IMG/VR virus record: IMGVR_UViG_2693429774_000016 | Origin: a virus | Taxonomy: Duplodnaviria > Heunggongvirae > Uroviricota > Caudoviricetes | Direction: 5' to 3' (one strand) | Length of the DNA: 10,951 bases | In this document: positions 3,336 through 10,951 of the stretch, in pieces | Layout: each line of letters opens with the position of its first letter | Numbering within the stretch: position 1 is the first letter of the stretch | Program-made: the position numbers and the translations under genes | Notes under the pieces: model-generated | Database searches by the model: none | The model's input: the letters and a program-made list of their open reading frames with translations, nothing else | What the model was told of the DNA's origin: nothing

Positions 3336-3590
3336 GTGAACCTCCCACAAGATGGTATCAAATTGCATCGCGGTAACTTCACCGCTATCGGTCGGCAGAT
3401 CCAGCCTTATCTGGAGGACGGCAAATGCTTTCGCATGGTGCTTAAACCGTGGCGCGAGAGACGCAGTCTTTCCCAGAATGCACTCAGCCACATGTGGTAC
3501 AGCGAAATCAGTGAATACCTCATCAGCAAGGGTAAAACGTTCGCCACTCCAGCTTGGGTATCCGCACCGGCGGGCGCGTGCTGGCGGTAA
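3336..3590 (+). pseudogene. ybcN: NinB/YbcN-family protein, 5' fragment, truncated by fusion to tail-fibre DNA
   Basis: GTG start with GGAGG 8 nt upstream. The first ~73 codons contain WRERRSLSQNALSHMWYSEISEY, resembling the conserved RSLDQN...W core of lambda NinB and the recalled K-12 YbcN. Homology ends at about 3552 and the reading frame runs into J-like sequence. Confidence 0.55.
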
Positions 3591-4537
3591 ACAGCCAGAC
3601 CCGGACGCTGACGCTCGACCGTGAAATCACGCTGCCATCTTCCGGCACCACGCTGATAAGCCTGGTTGACGGGCAGGGGAGTCCGGTCAGCGTGGAGGTT
3701 CAGTCCGTCACCGACGGCGTGAAGGTGAAAGTGAGCCGTGTTCCTGACGGCGTTGCTGAATACAGCGTATGGGGGCTGAAGCTGCCGACGTTGCGCCAGC
3801 GCCTGTTCCGCTGCGTGAGTATCCGTGAGAACGACGACGGCACGTATGCCATCACCGCCGTGCAGCATGTACCGGAAAAAGAGGCCATCGTGGATATTGA
3901 GAACACCCCTGACGGCATGCAGAGTCAGGTGCTGCTGGCGGCGGACAGGATTGCGATGGTTAATCCTGCGAATGGCAACACAAAACCGATGTTTGTTGGT
4001 CAGGGCGATCAGATATTCATGAACGACGTGTTCCTGAAACGCCTGACGGCCCCCACCATTACCAGCGGTGGAAATCCACCGGCATTTTCCCTGACACCGG
4101 ACGGAAAGCTGACCGCTAAAAATGCGGATATCAGTGGCAGTGTGAATGCGAACGCCGGGACGCTCAACAATGTCACGGTAAATGAAAACTGTACGATTAA
4201 GGGCATGCTGGAGGCGACTCAGGTCAGAGGTGACTTCGTTAAAGCTGTATCCAAATCATTCCCGAAACAGGCTGGTACGTGGGGTAATACGGAAACACCA
4301 AACGGGACGGTTACAGTCACCATCAGCGATGATCATAACTTTGACCGTCAAATCATTATTCCGCCCATTATCTTTAACGGAATAGCGTATAGCGATCCGG
4401 GAAGTGGTAATATTGGTGCTCATACGCACTCCGTTGCGATTGGCTCACATGGACACACCATCACCGTTAACGCTGCTGGTAACGCGGAAAACACCGTCAA
4501 AAACATCGCATTTAACTACATTGTGAGGCTTGCATAA
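3554..4537 (+). CDS. Lambda J-like host-specificity / tail-tip protein fragment: central segment plus C-terminal region with internal deletion and a divergent C-terminal tip; likely a remnant
   Basis: Translation contains [22 protein letters not shown]...[18 protein letters not shown]...[35 protein letters not shown] and later [56 protein letters not shown]. Both match lambda J segments as I recall them, but the intervening J sequence is missing and the last ~60 residues differ. No genuine N-terminus: the ORF begins at a TTG just after the ninB-like junction. Confidence 0.7.
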
Positions 4538-5121
4538 TGGCATTCAGAATGAGTGAACAACCACGGACCATAAAAATTTATAATCTGCTGGCCGGAACTA
4601 ATGAATTTATTGGTGAAGGTGACGCATATATTCCGCCTCATACAGGTCTGCCAGCAAACAGTACCTATATTGCACCGCCAGATATTCCGGTAGGCTTCGT
4701 GGCTGTTTTCAACAGTGATGAGGCATCGTGGCATCTCGTTGAAGATCATCGGGGAAAAACCGTCTATGACGTGGCTTCCGGCGACTCGTTATTTATTTCT
4801 GAACTCGGACCTCTACCGGAAAATATCACCTGGTTATCCCCGGAAGGGGAGTTTCAGAAGTGGAACGGCACAGCCTGGGTGAAGGATACGGAAGCAGAAA
4901 AACTGTTCCGGATCCGGGAGGCGGAAGAAACAAAAAACAGCCTGATGCAGGTAGCCAGTGAGCATATTGCCCCGCTTCAGGATGCTGCAGATCTGGAAAT
5001 CGCAACGGAGGAAGAAACCTCGTTGCTTGAAGCCTGGAAGAAGTATCGGGTGTTGCTGAATCGTGTTGATACATCAACTGCACCTGATATTGAGTGGCCT
5101 GCAATCCCTGTTATGGAATAA
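4537..5121 (+). CDS. tfa: Tail fibre assembly protein (lambda Tfa family), apparently full length
   Basis: 194-aa ORF beginning [39 protein letters not shown], near-identical to recalled lambda Tfa. Its ATG overlaps the upstream stop (TAATG), the usual fibre/chaperone coupling. Confidence 0.9.
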
Positions 5122-5240
5122 TAGTTTTGTGATATGCCGCAGAAACGTTATATGCAATAACGTGCTGCGGTTGGCTGATGTACTTTCGAGAGTGTATTGA
5201 ATAATTTCCAACCGTCATTAATTTTATTTATTTTTTGTAT

Positions 5241-5264
5241 GAGAGGATTTGAACCTCCGAGCCT
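5241..5264 (-). other. tRNA-Pro 3' fragment (T-arm relic), probable integration-site scar or module junction
   Basis: Minus-strand sequence TCGGAGGTTCAAATCCTCTC (plus 5241-5260) has a canonical T-arm (GGAGG stem, TTCAAAT loop, CCTCT). It matches the T-arm region of E. coli tRNA-Pro (proL-type) as I recall it over about 20 nt. No acceptor stem, CCA end or 5' half is present. Confidence 0.5.
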
Positions 5265-5454
5265 CGACACCTTATGACAACGCGATATTGCCTTGATGAC
5301 CGCCATGTGCCAAAATAACCAATTGATAAATAAGTTGATTTTAATTGGTTGGAAGCAAGTCAGGTCAAATTCAGCATTCCGCTCTCTGTATCGGATAGTT
5401 AAATTTTTCTATAACTGATAGTAATATGTTAAAACTCACACAGATAAATTATCA

Positions 5455-7437
5455 TTGCTCAACAAGTATAATGGAGTTCCCGTGGATACAGCAGAACATG
5501 ATGGCAAGTTTGCTTGGGCTAGTTTTTATGAGGCTTTTGCCAACGCGTTACTGACTTGGCGAAATCGTAGAGATGAATTAGTCAAAGGTATTCATCTAAT
5601 TGCCTCGGGTGTGGAAGGAATGTCCCATCTGCAGGACAAATCTATTATGGGAGAGATCTTTCCCTTAAAAGACATTTGTCCGTTTACTACTATGGGCTTG
5701 TTCAATCGTAACTTGACCGACAGCAATCGCAAAATTATTGCTGCCAAGCTAGCGAATTTGTTGGGCGTGAACGAACCGATTCCTGACTCCTTTGCCGGAA
5801 TCCCTCTGTTGAATAACCAAAAATCTTGGTTCTTTGGTTATGAAAAGTCACGCGACCCTAATGACATTGAATGCTTGTGGGAAATGTTCTCACAGGCAAT
5901 GATCTTTGCGGATAACCAGAATACTAACTCTGCAGACTTCACTGCCGCATATGACATCGCTTCTACAGTAATGAATGTCGGTTGGAATCTCACCATGGGG
6001 TTGTACTGGACCCGTCCTTGGTTCTACCCCACTTTAGATAGCCAGTCGCAGTATTACATTCAGACAGTGTTAAACATTAAGATCATTAAAAACGGGGCAA
6101 AAGGTCGCTGTAGTGGACAAAGTTACCTGAGTCTTATGCGGGCGCTGAACGAGGTCTTTACCCAACCAAACTATCCGGTTCATTCTTTCCCAGAACTTTC
6201 CTTATCAGCGTGGAATACAGATCTTAGCCAGTCTAAAGATGAGGTGGCAAATAGAACGTGGAAAGCCTCTTTACTGAATAAAATTAAGGCGTTATGCCTG
6301 AAAAAAAATGGCCCTTATTTCACTGCTTCGGAGTTGGAAGAAAACTACTTGGACGTATTCAAGGTAGAGCATCCTGAGAGCAAAACTGTTACAAGCTCAA
6401 TCTACTTTTATCTACAGAAACTATGCAATGATGATGAGTTAAAGTCCCTCGAGTCCGGAAATTATGAATACCTGAATTTTGAGAAAAACGAATCCCAGAC
6501 GATAACTGAGGAAACTGTCGAAGAGAGTGCGCTGTTGCCAAAACTCACCCACGTTCCTTATGACATCAGTCATCTGGTGCAGGATGGCTGTTTCTTGGAA
6601 GAGGCTAAGATCCAACTCACACTTCAGCGCCTGATCGACAAGAAAAACCTGATATTACAAGGACCACCCGGAACTGGAAAAACTTGGTTAGCGCGACGTC
6701 TGGCGTACTGCTTGATGGGAGAAAAAGCACCTGAGCGTATTAGCGCGGTGCAATTTCACCCGAACCTCTCTTACGAAGACTTTATTCGAGGCTGGCGTCC
6801 AGGTAAAGAAGGGCAATTGACGCTAATTGATGGACCTTTTGTAAATGCAATCAAAACTGCAGTCAATAATCCTACCTCGAAATATGTGGTGATAATTGAA
6901 GAGATTAATCGTGGCAATCCGGCGCAAATCTTCGGTGAAACACTCACGTTGATGGAAGCAGATAAACGCACGCCGACTGAGGCATTATCTCTTTCCTATC
7001 CTAAAAATGCTGATGAAAAAATATACATTCCTGAGAATCTATATATCATCGGTACGATGAATATTGCAGACCGCTCACTCGCACTACTTGACCTAGCGCT
7101 GCGCCGTCGTTTCGCGTTTATCGATCTAAAGCCAGCTTTTAATGACGCGTGGAGAAACTGGGTAAATTATAATTACGCAATTGATTTTGACATGTTAGCA
7201 TTCATCAAATCTCGACTGACGGTATTAAACGATATGCTGGCAAAAGATGTTACCTTAGGACCACAGTTTTGTATCGGTCACAGCTATGTCACCCCAGCTA
7301 TCGGCCAAAAAATCAACGATGCCCAGGCTTGGTATGAACAAGTCGTTGATACAGAGATCTGCCCTTTGCTCGCCGAATATTGGTTCGATGCTCCAAATAA
7401 AGTCGATGAAGCCAGAAAAGTGTTATTAGCAAAATGA
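5455..7437 (+). CDS. McrB-like GTPase subunit of a type IV modification-dependent restriction system, with an unrecognised ~400-aa N-terminal domain
   Basis: C-terminal ~260 aa align to recalled K-12 McrB: Walker A GPPGTGKT (6661-6684), Walker B-like VVIIEEINRGN, GTP-specificity motif MNIADRSLA, and RRRFAFIDL. The ORF begins at TTG 5455; GTG 5482 preceded by GGAG with a 5-nt spacer may be the true start. The N-terminal domain resembles nothing I recognise. Confidence 0.85.
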   Translation: MLNKYNGVPVDTAEHDGKFAWASFYEAFANALLTWRNRRDELVKGIHLIASGVEGMSHLQDKSIMGEIFPLKDICPFTTMGLFNRNLTDSNRKIIAAKLANLLGVNEPIPDSFAGIPLLNNQKSWFFGYEKSRDPNDIECLWEMFSQAMIFADNQNTNSADFTAAYDIASTVMNVGWNLTMGLYWTRPWFYPTLDSQSQYYIQTVLNIKIIKNGAKGRCSGQSYLSLMRALNEVFTQPNYPVHSFPELSLSAWNTDLSQSKDEVANRTWKASLLNKIKALCLKKNGPYFTASELEENYLDVFKVEHPESKTVTSSIYFYLQKLCNDDELKSLESGNYEYLNFEKNESQTITEETVEESALLPKLTHVPYDISHLVQDGCFLEEAKIQLTLQRLIDKKNLILQGPPGTGKTWLARRLAYCLMGEKAPERISAVQFHPNLSYEDFIRGWRPGKEGQLTLIDGPFVNAIKTAVNNPTSKYVVIIEEINRGNPAQIFGETLTLMEADKRTPTEALSLSYPKNADEKIYIPENLYIIGTMNIADRSLALLDLALRRRFAFIDLKPAFNDAWRNWVNYNYAIDFDMLAFIKSRLTVLNDMLAKDVTLGPQFCIGHSYVTPAIGQKINDAQAWYEQVVDTEICPLLAEYWFDAPNKVDEARKVLLAK

Positions 7438-8555
7438 CGACAATAACCGGGAGTGAGCAACATACAGCATCACGTATTCCCATGCGAAATATCTGGATGC
7501 TGATGCTGTACGCTTCAGATCTGTTTCGCCAGTTAGGGCGCAATCAGATCGCAGTAGAAGATAACCCAGCAGAAATCCCCGACCTGGTGGCGACAATCCT
7601 CCTTCATGAGATTACGCTGCGCCGACGTCGCAATTTAAATATGGGATACCAAACTTGTCATGCGGCCCTGAACCGGGTGAGAGGGCGCATTGACATACTG
7701 TATACTGCCAGTCATCAACTGCTGGAACGGGGACAGGTTGCCTGCCATTTTCAAGACATAACCCTCAACACCCCCCGAAATCGCTATGTTCGCTGTGCGT
7801 TAGAACGTCTGGCCTCAATCATAGTGAAACCGTCTTTGGCGGCAGATTGCCATTTTATGGCAATATCACTTCGCCGTGAGGGGATAAATGGAGGATATCC
7901 TGCCCCCCGCGAATTACCCTCAGTGTGGCGTTTTGGACGCCATGATGCCGCAGATAAACCGATGGTCGATGCCGCACGATTAGCTTTTGAACTGCTGATG
8001 CCGACCGAAGATCAAGGCCAATATCTTTTACCTGCGCCCTCAAATAACCTTTACTGGATGAGAAGACTATTTGAAAAAGGTATCGCTGGCTTATATCGTG
8101 TACACCTTGCCAAAACAACTTGGCAGGTCTCTGCAGGGAAAGAGCTGAAATGGGCGTTGAGCGATCAAAGTGCAGGTAGTGCAGAGATTTTCCCGACAAT
8201 GAAGTCAGACATTATTCTGGAACACAAGACTGCCCAGCGGCGTATTATTATCGATACCAAATTTAATTCGATTCTGACAAAGGGTTGGCATCGGGAGCAA
8301 TCACTACGTAATGGCTATATTTATCAGCTATATACCTACCTTAGAACACAGGAGAACAAGACGGATCCGCTTTCGCTCAATGCCGCTGGTCTTCTACTTC
8401 ATCCAGCTGTTGGCTATATGCTTAATGAGTATGTTGTCACTCAGGGACATAAGATCCATTTTGCTACAGTAGATATGACGGTAGATGCTAAAGCAATTAA
8501 AAAACAATTGCTGGCAATAGCCCATGATTGTGCAGGAGTCGCGGTTGATGACTAA
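7434..8555 (+). CDS. McrC-like PD-(D/E)xK endonuclease subunit of a type IV restriction system
   Basis: 373-aa ORF whose ATG overlaps the McrB-like stop (ATGA at 7434-7437). The N-terminal PMRNIWMLMLYA resembles K-12 McrC PVRNIYYMLTYAW. SDIIL ... IIIDTKF parallels McrC TDITI ... IVDAKYY, so the catalytic D ... D-x-K appears intact. Confidence 0.85.
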   Translation: MTTITGSEQHTASRIPMRNIWMLMLYASDLFRQLGRNQIAVEDNPAEIPDLVATILLHEITLRRRRNLNMGYQTCHAALNRVRGRIDILYTASHQLLERGQVACHFQDITLNTPRNRYVRCALERLASIIVKPSLAADCHFMAISLRREGINGGYPAPRELPSVWRFGRHDAADKPMVDAARLAFELLMPTEDQGQYLLPAPSNNLYWMRRLFEKGIAGLYRVHLAKTTWQVSAGKELKWALSDQSAGSAEIFPTMKSDIILEHKTAQRRIIIDTKFNSILTKGWHREQSLRNGYIYQLYTYLRTQENKTDPLSLNAAGLLLHPAVGYMLNEYVVTQGHKIHFATVDMTVDAKAIKKQLLAIAHDCAGVAVDD

Positions 8556-8911
8556 CCATCCTATAAGGCACTGGCTGTAATATAATCAATAGTTTCAATT
8601 AAGTAGCTGTTATCCGTGCTTAGTCATCATATGACGCACCACGGTCTAATTTTCCTGCTCATACATTGATATATCCTTGTCGTGCCCGGAAAGTCGCAGT
8701 CCACTATGAGGTATACCGATTGCCAGCACCAAAAGCTTCTTTGTGATTATTATATCGGGGAATGCCTATTTTTTTAGTGACAATATCAGATAGCAATTAA
8801 TAAGCGGTGCCGGTAATGGATGTTATGTTTAATGTATAGACACAGCCATCATAAACTAAACGTCTGTTGTTCGCTCATAACCGACATTTATCTCAGTTAT
8901 GGAGGATAATT

Positions 8912-8992
8912 ATGTATGCAGATAATGGGGCAGACAGTCGTGGAGTAAACAAGGTTTTGCACTGCTTGGCGGCATCGTTATCTTATTTTTAA
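8912..8992 (+). CDS. Candidate small ORF (26 aa, MYADNGADSRGVNKVLHCLAASLSYF) with a strong Shine-Dalgarno; speculative
   Basis: GGAGG at 8901-8905 sits 6 nt upstream of ATG 8912; stop TAA at 8990-8992. It lies in an otherwise ORF-free arm. No homology recognised. Confidence 0.2.
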   Translation: MYADNGADSRGVNKVLHCLAASLSYF

Positions 8993-9255
8993 TTATGTGC
9001 CTCTTAACATAAGTTGGGACAAAACAGAGACACATAAGGTCTCACAAAGGTCTGCAAGGCCTCACATGTATTGAGATGTTAATAAAATGTAGACTTGTAA
9101 TTTGGATATAAATGGTAGAGAAAACCTTTCCCCAAAATAAAAACGAACGTCAATGAAATCAAACGGTTGAATAAAGTTTATTTTGGCTAATAAAAAGACA
9201 ATAAAATAATTTTTATCGTTAAATATCAATGACTTGAATTCATGGTTTTTATATA

Positions 9256-9420
9256 CTGCTGCGCCATATGGGTTGGACTGAAGCGGCTGACCTGATTGTT
9301 AAAGGTATGGAAGGCGCAATCAATGCCAAGACCGTAACTTATGACTTCGAACGTCTGATGGAAGGCGCTAAGCTGCTGAAATGTTCAGAGTTTGGTGAAG
9401 CGATCATCGAAAACATGTAA
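9256..9420 (+). pseudogene. icdC: Isocitrate dehydrogenase 3' fragment (icdC-type attachment-site duplication), last ~55 codons only
   Basis: Translation [54 protein letters not shown] matches the C-terminus of E. coli Icd as I recall it. The sequence upstream of 9256 is non-coding and AT-rich, so this is an isolated fragment. Its length, about 165 bp, equals the icd duplication known for e14-type integration. Confidence 0.85.
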
Positions 9421-9443
9421 TCTCTCCATGTGTTAAATATTGA

Positions 9444-9475
9444 AACGGGCGTATAACACGCCCGTTGTTTTATTT
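9444..9475 (+). terminator. Rho-independent terminator (icd-type), placed between the convergent icdC fragment and iraM
   Basis: AACGGGCG (9444-9451), loop TATAACA, CGCCCGTT (9459-9466), then GTTTTATTT. Confidence 0.8.
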
Positions 9476-9522
9476 ATGTGGATATTATTAATAGCATATC
9501 GAGCATATTTATATGAAGCCCA

Positions 9523-9846
9523 TTACTTGAGCCCATATGGGCATATTTTTATAATGCAACTATTATGTAAACATTTATTTGTTATTTTGCTTTCTCCTGG
9601 AGGACACTCTTGACTGCTTTTGAGTAAACTCCATAAATCCTTGTTGAATGGTGCGATGTGATAAATAGTAATAGGATATTCTTTATCCTTAAGGATAATA
9701 CCAGACTTAACCGGTGTAAATATACTGCCAGGAGGGAGAAATATAGTAGATTGATACCAGATGATCATTTTCATATTACCCCATATGGCTGAAAAAGATA
9801 TACCACATGTAGGTTGAATTACCGTGTCAATTACTATCCACTTCAT
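9523..9846 (-). CDS. iraM: Anti-adaptor protein IraM (inhibits RssB-mediated RpoS degradation)
   Basis: 107-aa minus-strand [35 protein letters not shown]... matches K-12 IraM (formerly YcgW) as I recall it in length and sequence. Its position next to icdC agrees with the K-12 gene order. Confidence 0.85.
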
Positions 9847-10309
9847 TTGTTATGTCTTATCCCACGGTATTTAATATGGTTCATTAGGATGTTTATTTCT
9901 TGATTTTGCATATGAGTATATTACCCCCCCCCTCAAAAAAATAAATTAATTAAAATGATGGCTTATATAAAATAAAATTTAAAGCAAGGAATCTCAATGG
10001 ATGTTAAACAAAATGAGATTTTGTGAAAGCAATAAATTATTGACTTCGTTTTAGATTTGTTTAGCTATAATGTTATACATTCAAATGACTGAACATCCTG
10101 TAATTAAAACATAGCCTTTATGCTACTTTGTGCCAATTTGCTAAACATTATGGTTGCCTTTTTATATAACGATAATAATGAATATAAGCATGACATGAGA
10201 ATAAGGTTTCAATTTTTGAGTTATATAGGAATGATTTAACCTGTTCCTGGCTAAAATACATATAACCGGATGATGACTAAACCAAAATACATGTGCGTTA
10301 AGTATTGAA

Positions 10310-10337
10310 ACGGACGTGTGGCACGGCCGTTGTTTTT
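10310..10337 (+). terminator. Second, degenerate icd-type terminator copy (stem-loop plus T-run)
   Basis: ACGGACGTG / CACGGCCGT stem with one mismatch, followed by TGTTTTT. The preceding ~25 nt (CATGTGCGTTAAGTATTGAAACGG) closely resemble the sequence before the 9444 terminator (CATGTGTTAAATATTGAAACGG). Confidence 0.5.
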
Positions 10338-10546
10338 ATAAATATGTTAACCGTTATAAAATAACGTATCAAAAGTCAAGTGATCACATTTCAAATATCA
10401 AGTTGATAGTATTAGTCTGGTGATTATTTATGGGTGACAATAAAAAGACAGTATTAATCATCCATAGAGATAGTCTCTGCACTTTTATTTCCATTATGCT
10501 AATGCCTTACTGAATTATGAAGCATTTCTTAAGTATCCAACTTTAG

Positions 10547-10951
10547 CTAGATTAATGGTTTATTATTTTCTACATCTTCAATATATAAAAGCGTATTATC
10601 AATGGCGTAGTAACTGCGTTTGTTATGATTAACATCAGTAACCCACCGGAAAACGCCCGCACCTGCCAGTGTTGAACAGTATTCCCGAAATGTAGATTTT
10701 CCGCAAATATGAAGCAATGCGGCCTCTTTTATTTTAGCAGGGTTCTTGGTCGTACTAACTTTTAACAGGTTCCTGGTTCCTCTTAATAACAAAACCGTAT
10801 CATCGTGAGTAATAATTCTGATGTTATCCGTAGCCAGATAATAAATGTAATGTGCAATACGGTGATGTTTTAATTCTGAATAAAACCAGGAGAAGTTTTG
10901 CTCTTTTCTCACTTGCTCAAACATCTTTTGAAAAACAACGACCTGATCCAT
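10547..10951 (-). CDS. ycgX: Conserved hypothetical protein (YcgX-like); start codon is the last three bases of the window
   Basis: 134-aa minus-strand ORF beginning at the window edge (reverse complement of CAT at 10949-10951). In K-12 the gene next to iraM is ycgX, a protein of this size. Symbol assigned by synteny and memory only. Confidence 0.6.
   Translation of the reverse strand: MDQVVVFQKMFEQVRKEQNFSWFYSELKHHRIAHYIYYLATDNIRIITHDDTVLLLRGTRNLLKVSTTKNPAKIKEAALLHICGKSTFREYCSTLAGAGVFRWVTDVNHNKRSYYAIDNTLLYIEDVENNKPLI

Follow-up and report, generated by a model that had tools for sequence, protein, structure and literature searches.

Between the tail-fibre genes and a McrBC-like restriction operon of an e14-like prophage inserted at icd in E. 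coli lies a sequence that resembles tRNA-Pro on the minus strand, and we asked what this sequence is and how it came to be there. It is textbook knowledge that islands and prophages can be bordered by partial copies of tRNAs and that attP sites can contain the 3′ portion of a tRNA gene. The original prediction had described a T-arm relic of roughly 20 nt and had offered two readings: either the restriction module arrived on a separate tRNA-targeting element, or the piece is an old att scar inside the mosaic. The DNA analyzed here is a stretch of 10,951 nucleotides, termed the window, which holds the right end of this prophage.

Setting of the tRNA-like sequence at the prophage end

From left to right, the window encodes a large serine recombinase (436–1962, 508 residues), which is its sole recombinase, an antirepressor fragment, a tail-fibre gene (3554–4537) and the tail fibre assembly gene tfa, followed after a gap of 330 bases by the McrB-like and McrC-like genes (Table 1). 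Positions 4411–9016 are identical to strain FORC 064 and the sequence from 9254 to 10951 matches K-12 from icdC, the pseudo-3′ end of icd, through iraM to ycgX at 99.8% identity, which places the end of the prophage at 9253/9254. Positions 9257–9473 share 92.6% identity with the 3′ end of icd. At the corresponding prophage end, e14 of K-12 carries pinE and mcrA, and the e14-type integrase of FORC 064 is located at the opposite end of the prophage. The prophage is heavily rearranged: its left part is unlike FORC 064, identity to that strain starts only at 4411, and the segment 436–3141 comprises the serine recombinase, the antirepressor fragment, which is of the P22 type, and an unassigned 169-codon open reading frame directly before the truncated tail-fibre gene.

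At the DNA level, tfa is 94% identical to orf-194/tfa of lambda. An Rfam scan of the region returned only the family IS009 (183.7 bits), at 4900–5078 within the 3′ part of the tfa coding sequence, so that this 'RNA family' match overlaps a conserved protein-coding region in the window. A conserved non-coding block that starts with a hairpin follows tfa. The hairpin stem is kept in lambda, HK97 and PhiR11_1_star, with a different inner-stem sequence in the latter, and lambda (NC_001416) possesses two copies flanking ea47 at about 22565–22608 and 24161–24250. The hairpin has no U-tract and is therefore not termed a terminator here. The homology of several prophage variants to the window begins in the middle of this hairpin, at 5139 or 5151; among them, strain YJ1 shows contiguous homology of 97.8% over 5139–10951 and carries a pin pseudogene rather than tfa upstream. 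Block and hairpin are found after tfa in many lambdoid phages, such as HK97, HK106, mEp460 and Stx phages. HK97 and HK106 have the block after tfa and, immediately beyond it, sib and attP. In the window, the tRNA-like sequence occupies the position between this block and about 4 kb of cargo ending at attR.

The cargo starts with the McrB-like gene, for which the RefSeq annotation of FORC 064 uses a start at 5482. In the McrB-like protein, the AAA_5 domain begins at residue 398, and the first approximately 380 residues (5455–6600) are without a Pfam match.

Table 1. Features at the right end of the prophage (positions in the window)
Feature	Position	Strand	Basis or remark
Tail fibre assembly gene tfa, final late gene ahead of the relic	4537–5121	+	Pfam Caudo_TAP, E = 7e-44
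Conserved hairpin CCGCAG...CTGCGG, start of the non-coding block after tfa	5137–5170		Folds at -18.8 kcal/mol
Rest of the conserved lambdoid 'end of late operon' block	5171–5229		70–81% identity to lambda, sit-carrying phages and SPF_0923
A-run AAAAAAT, adjoining the truncated 3′ end of the relic	5230–5236	-	Found in all 29 relic versions
proL-derived tRNA-length relic (tRNA positions 70 back to 1)	5237–5312	-	Alignment to proL
Relic part: acceptor 3′ remnant CATAC	5237–5241	-	Alignment to proL
Relic part: T arm	5242–5258	-	Exact proL copy
Relic part: variable loop and anticodon arm	5259–5285	-	Alignment to proL
Relic part: pseudo-D region and 5′ acceptor remnant	5286–5312	-	Alignment to proL
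A+T-rich spacer between relic and McrB-like gene	5313–5454		Always accompanies the window-type relic
McrB-like AAA+ GTPase gene	5455–7437	+	Pfam AAA_5, E = 8e-27
McrC-like gene	7434–8555	+	Pfam McrBC, E = 5e-21
attR, right end of the prophage with duplicated icd 3′ end	9254–9473	+	Comparison with K-12

A tRNA-length relic of proL

The resemblance to tRNA-Pro on the minus strand proved to be real. The minus strand at 5242–5258 reads GGAGGTTCAAATCCTCT, which equals the T arm of E. coli proL (tRNA-Pro GGG) without a single mismatch; this sequence occurs once in the window, whereas about 0.04 matches with up to three mismatches would be expected. We then used the minus strand of 5232–5320 as a blind blastn query against 5426 complete E. 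coli genomes (28 Gb). The annotated tRNA-Pro at the proL position was matched in 5426 of 5426 genomes, with 34 of 38 identical positions over 5241–5278 (E = 4e-4 in 28 Gb). Local alignment of the relic to proL gave z = 18.6, a score that none of 500 dinucleotide shuffles reached, and when the relic was aligned to individual tRNA genes proL scored higher than proM, proK, argX, hisR and leuT. Searches of phage genomes with the relic piece also match tRNA-Pro genes of unrelated phages.

The similarity is longer than the roughly 20 nt initially noticed. The 34/38 match extends from the T arm through the variable loop into the anticodon arm, of which it includes the 3′ strand and the loop; this best-preserved part corresponds to tRNA positions 30–67, and beyond it a degenerate 5′ half extends to 5312, where a 5′ acceptor remnant (TGGCACA, 5312–5306 on the minus strand) is found. 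At the other end, the relic reads CTCTCATAC and then runs directly into AAAAAAT: the 3′ end of proL, CCGACCA, is replaced by the A-run, which fits a deletion of 5 nt. The relic thereby lacks the last six nucleotides of the tRNA, that is the last two stem bases, the discriminator and CCA. Of the original statement that there is no acceptor stem, the loss of pairing holds, with 3 of 7 pairs left between TGGCACA and CATACAA and the 3′ end missing, but remnants of both strands are present.

Compared to proL on its own, the 5′ half gives a marginal signal, with 87 of 2000 to 174 of 2000 shuffles reaching the scores of the window, lambda and PhiR11_1_star (L009) copies and no signal for the copies in L006 and SPF_0923. 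We thus judged the origin of this half by comparison with phage-borne sites (see below). That the sequence as a whole is a genuine relic derived from proL is close to certain. A chance resemblance could at best appeal to the shortness of the piece originally noted and is practically negligible, given the alignment statistics above and the different proL characters kept by independent relatives.

The relic is neither a tRNA gene nor an active attachment site

ARAGORN predicted no tRNA gene at the relic, neither in default mode nor with the pseudogene settings -ps, -ps90 and -ps80; at -ps70 and -ps60 it made scattered calls whose anticodons were inconsistent, and we disregarded these. The Rfam tRNA model found no match at E ≤ 10 in 4900–5700, and an Rfam scan of the lambda-type copy described below returned only chance-level matches. 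The anticodon is changed from GGG to AAG and the D region is 5 nt too long. To assess the fold across the family, 13 relics and proL were scored against the proL cloverleaf in comparison to column shuffles. This set is paired in 61.6% of the cells, which is no better than the shuffles. By stem, pairing amounts to 49% in the acceptor stem, 50% in the anticodon stem, which is paired in the window-type relic, and 93% in the T stem. The T stem shows no two-sided changes, and covariation does not exceed that of the shuffles. The family is thus not maintained as a tRNA-like fold, and 5237–5312 is not a tRNA gene.

An active attP would have to be identical to the tRNA gene from the crossover to its 3′ end, while the relic agrees at 34 of 38 positions and misses the last 6 nt. 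No tyrosine recombinase is encoded between tfa and the end of the prophage. The 10,951 bases contain no second, directly repeated copy of the T arm with up to three mismatches, as an attL/attR pair would require. An invertase crossover site, which might have explained the match otherwise, was not found either: no Gin/Hin/Pin core (AAACC-NN-GGTTT) occurs near the relic, and the sole match of the gix/hix type, with one mismatch, lies at 3983–3994 inside the tail-fibre gene. Intrinsic terminators (G+C-rich hairpin plus T-run) were absent from both strands of 5080–5480, and promoter-like matches around the relic did not exceed those in shuffled sequences. A 52-codon open reading frame on the minus strand (5148–5306) overlaps the relic; it has no Pfam match and was treated as spurious. 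Every tested defining feature of an active attP or a tRNA gene is missing, and the relic is not an active site and has no detectable activity as a tRNA, a terminator or a recombination site.

Lambda and other phages carry homologous relics at the same position

Lambda itself contains a homologous relic (NC_001416, 24266–24341), between ea47 and ea31. On the same strand and after the same block, further copies are present in the sit-carrying phages of the Lambda_4B5 group, Salmonella phage SPF_0923, PhiR11_1_star and 43 IMG/VR loci, amounting to 29 distinct versions in total. We found no description of this family, including the copy in the b region of lambda, in the literature searched. In all 29 versions, the truncated 3′ end CAT(A/G)C-AAAAAAT abuts the same conserved block. 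The DNA to the right of the relic differs, with the McrBC-like operon in the window, ea31/ea59 in lambda, sitDCBA in SPF_0923 and genes of unknown function elsewhere. The relic thus marks where the conserved late-operon end gives way to a variable terminal cargo region.

The relics of lambda and the sit-carrying phages share with that of the window the left flank (block and A-run), the truncated 3′ end, length, spacing and strand, while they differ in the variable-loop, anticodon and pseudo-5′ parts, in the T loop and in the cargo. Window-type and lambda-type relics are 79–85% identical up to the T arm and 35–57% identical beyond about position 5262. The T loop is mutated in lambda-type relics (TGCAAAT or GGTACAAAT) and intact in the window; conversely, lambda retains the proL character CGGCACATAGC. 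Independent decay from a proL-like ancestor would produce such a loss of different proL characters in each lineage.

About 300 of the 5426 E. coli genomes carry a window-type relic. The McrBC-like operon is present at 11 of 11 loci with this relic type, which was found only together with that operon. In E. coli AR_0128, a decayed relic with its block lies 2.7 kb from a perfect proL site of the kind described below. In Escherichia ruysiae (NZ_CABVLQ010000001.1, a 4.65-Mb contig), the relic pattern occurs at two loci (L266, 5903–5928; L279, 7442–7467), which may lie near each other. The pattern also appeared in assemblies of Pseudomonas, Shewanella, Streptomyces, Enterococcus and others (genome contigs L265, L268, L280 and about fifteen short contigs); these contigs, which are either of low coverage and about 48.4 kb or short fragments, look like contamination with lambda DNA.

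Phage-borne sites with a perfect proL 3′ half

We compared the relic to phage-borne sites that derive from proL. In Escherichia phage Flotzy, a tyrosine-integrase phage, a perfect proL 3′ half of 47 nt, from the anticodon loop to CCA (positions 30–76), is followed by a terminator and lies 126 nt from the integrase gene. Relative to the tail-fibre gene, its tRNA sense runs the opposite way, which is also the geometry of the relic. The relic and the Flotzy attP are both derived from proL and both follow the late genes, at the start of the accessory and att region, and the best-preserved part of the relic falls within the positions that Flotzy shares with proL. Unlike the Flotzy attP, the relic has no adjacent integrase, no terminator and no last 6 nt, shows 4 mismatches in its 38-nt core and has a different arm.

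Scanning IMG/VR for the exact proL 3′ end yielded at least 120 loci. In the 80 loci for which it was measured, exact identity to proL extends over 34–55 nt from the 3′ end. Of the at least 120 loci listed, 22 have a Flotzy-like integrase no more than 400 nt away, and another 15 have one at a distance of 1.1–3.2 kb, with cargo in between. None of the at least 120 loci listed has McrBC-like genes beside the perfect site.

In the relatives of the relic among these loci, identity to proL stops sharply at the anticodon arm, 46–55 nt from the 3′ end. About a dozen of the listed loci then show a degenerate image of the 5′ half, which reads GTCCGCTYC-TGGCACATAGCAGCC followed by 21 variable nucleotides and CATGG. 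This pseudo-5′ half is 5 nt longer than that of proL, and the relics have the same additional 5 nt, column for column. Lambda-type relics furthermore have about 10–20 nt upstream of the pseudo-5′ half in common with these sites, including the GTCCGCTYC motif. The relic of PhiR11_1_star agrees with the site of locus L113 at 23 of 23 positions (E = 2.6e-8), and the arm of the window relic agrees with that of L143 at 31 of 50 positions at a fixed offset, compared to a background mean of 12.6 and maximum of 24 among 5000 random 50-mers. The conserved block is likewise found at such perfect sites, 0.9–3 kb to their tail-fibre side. Hence, the colinear alignment, the additional 5 nt and the shared arms show that the relic stems from the proL-derived sites of phages rather than straight from the host gene. 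This colinearity reaches beyond the part taken from the host tRNA; the sites with a relic-type arm are themselves putative attP sites. At the 3′ end, perfect sites read CGTGCCGACCAAAAAT where relics read CATGC-AAAAAAT or, more generally, CAT(A/G)C-AAAAAAT, which suggests a deletion of 5 nt in the relics; the terminator is absent from the latter and the block abuts directly.

Perfect sites with a relic-type arm, carried for example by the prophages IMGVR_UViG_2922317101_000005 and 2651869826_000005, differ from those of the Flotzy type. None has an adjacent Flotzy-like integrase, and among the best 80 of 160 matches no such integrase was found on the same contigs. They also lack the approximately 120-nt conserved arm of Flotzy-type sites, and no attR combining a relic-type arm with the native proL end was detected in any of the 5426 E. 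coli genomes. At least two unsplit perfect sites lie near the ends of prophages inserted elsewhere, one beside purB and one in the thrW array. On the far side of the former (L074), a DUF7380/DUF4209 gene, an SRAP gene and a further gene precede host purB; in E. coli strain D2, where we followed the DUF4209 gene, the prophage context is unrelated. The latter is the site of E. coli AR_0128 (NZ_CP021722.1, 4017208–4017289; L179, 5009–5090), the closest perfect relative, which is part of an e14-like remnant with HEPN-domain cargo between site and host DNA. RefSeq annotates it as an 82-nt 'tRNA-Pro', but ARAGORN finds none and its score with the Rfam tRNA model is 15 bits, below the threshold of 29, so that it is probably not a real tRNA gene. 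At the AR_0128 site and other perfect sites, a terminator is retained whose stem differs from that of the native proL terminator by compensating changes. An interpretation of the perfect sites as secondary-site junctions of Flotzy-like phages was not supported, the far end of the AR_0128 element carrying no proL piece.

Twelve loci (L059, L069, L074, L100, L103, L113, L119, L123, L124, L127, L143 and L146) combine a perfect proL 3′ half of 46–55 nt and a terminator with widely differing pseudo-5′ halves. These sites are unsplit and 1–5 kb from the prophage ends, and they are followed by defence-like cargo (DUF7380/DUF4209, HEPN, SRAP) and then host genes such as purB. Neutral decay cannot explain perfect 3′ halves beside such different 5′ halves; the sites may serve, or recently have served, as attP, may exchange sequence with working sites, or may go back to proL-type phages inserted at secondary sites. 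A comparable piece, consisting of the proL T arm, the 3′ acceptor strand and the CCA end plus terminator, is present in the Salmonella prophage Gifsy-2 (NC_010393.1, 44275–44334) about 1.5 kb from its right end near sseI, and Gifsy-2 is not inserted at proL. Flotzy-type arms (L005, 3048–3170), which belong to proven proL attP sites, show a faint, insertion-bearing likeness to the proL 5′ half, for example TAGCGCGGCTC compared to TAGCGCAGCCT, which suggests that the whole attP family arose from a complete tRNA gene.

Origin of the relic

Taken together, we consider it likely that 5237–5312 is the non-functional vestige of a lambdoid attachment-site module derived from proL, in other words a fossil attP. 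This agrees with the second of the two original readings, the old att scar, for which the orientation and position relative to the tail-fibre genes, both as in Flotzy, speak in addition to the colinearity and the 5 additional nucleotides. In phages that integrate at proL, the attachment site follows the tail-fibre genes with its tRNA sense on the opposite strand. Its perfect proL 3′ half and terminator allow the tRNA gene to be restored upon integration, and its other side is a degenerate image of the 5′ half. A common ancestor of lambda, the sit-carrying phages and these e14-like prophages would have integrated at proL via this site, before its proL-specific integrase was replaced by another module, such as att/int of lambda or the e14 integrase with icd. 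The disused site would no longer have been under selection; a deletion may have removed 5 nt from its 3′ end, the terminator being lost as well, before further decay, and its location, with the conserved late-operon end on one side and the cargo on the other, may be the reason for its survival. We infer this order of events, from integrase replacement through deletion to decay.

An alternative starting point would be a tRNA-Pro(GGG) gene that was carried as cargo after the tail-fibre genes, once complete and working with its own terminator, and that has since decayed. The likeness along the full length of a tRNA and the traces of the two acceptor strands would suit such a gene, as would the RefSeq annotation at AR_0128 and the terminators preserved with compensating stem changes. 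However, the relatives with a perfect 3′ half already possess a degenerate, highly variable 5′ half that is 5 nt longer, and the sharp stop of identity at the anticodon arm is the pattern of an attachment site and not that of a gene for a folded tRNA. The AR_0128 site itself fails as a tRNA in ARAGORN and Rfam. We thus regard a cargo tRNA gene as unlikely.

It is similarly doubtful that the relic and the perfect proL sites together constitute a recombination joint at which lambda-like prophages exchange their terminal defence or cargo island, be it that proL-type integrases use them as secondary landing sites or that they are a homology patch kept by selection. If true, this would explain why an unsplit perfect 3′ half with terminator is found in prophages inserted at other loci.

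The other half of the original prediction, that the restriction module arrived on its own tRNA-Pro-targeting element whose att scar is the relic, found little to sustain it, and we consider it improbable. The strict association of window-type relic and operon and the drop of identity to lambda-type relics inside the relic are what such an element might leave behind. But no integrase is encoded between 5313 and the prophage end at 9253, and the window has no second T-arm copy. Elements that target tRNA genes insert at the 3′ side of the tRNA, whereas the McrBC-like operon lies on the 5′ side of the tRNA-like sequence, and in other phages the relic family precedes ea31/ea59, sitDCBA and unrelated genes. 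Moreover, the arm of the window relic agrees with perfect sites at 26–31 of 50 positions, marginally more than with lambda-type relics (23–26 of 50). The identity drop suggests a mosaic joint inside the relic, and these arm comparisons do so weakly; recombination within the tRNA-like sequence may have brought in the right part of the relic along with the McrBC-like operon, from another such phage.

Equally improbable in our view is that the relic works in its present form, as a secondary att site, a signal for RNA processing or stabilization, or a homology patch for cargo exchange. Its T-arm hairpin is largely paired across the family, it is invariably located right where conserved DNA meets variable DNA, and neutral decay leaves the unsplit perfect relatives in prophages elsewhere unexplained. 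Against this stand the covariation, which does not exceed that of the shuffles, the absence of terminator-like features and the chance level of promoter-like matches. The anticodon-loop region, where identity of Flotzy to proL ends and where the crossover presumably takes place, is changed at 4 of 17 positions in the window, the 3′ end is deleted, and the orientation of the relic relative to neighbouring genes differs between lambda and the window.

Relation to known systems and implications

As a fossil attP, the relic is a decayed member of a familiar kind, the tRNA-derived att remnants of prophage mosaics. Like the tRNA repeats of attL/attR pairs, it is a piece of tRNA origin that lies where two modules of a mosaic prophage meet. 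Such repeats consist of the tRNA 3′ part only, are paired and flank the insert, whereas the relic is single, spans the whole tRNA length and has the cargo on its 5′ side. Lambdoid phages also possess boundary sequences, short conserved non-coding stretches between modules where mosaic joints cluster. Block and relic resemble them in being conserved non-coding DNA at which the relatedness of phages starts or stops, but differ from generic boundary sequences in having an identifiable origin, a tRNA-derived attachment site.

For annotation, these results are a warning, since relatives of the relic are being called 'tRNA-Pro' genes. The signature of block and relic is the inner border of a terminal cargo region that holds McrBC-like, sitABCD, HEPN, DUF4209 or ea31/ea59 genes, and it could help to locate defence and virulence cargo in lambdoid prophages. 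For lambda, the relic at 24266–24341 suggests that the ancestor of its b region belonged to a phage that integrated at proL.
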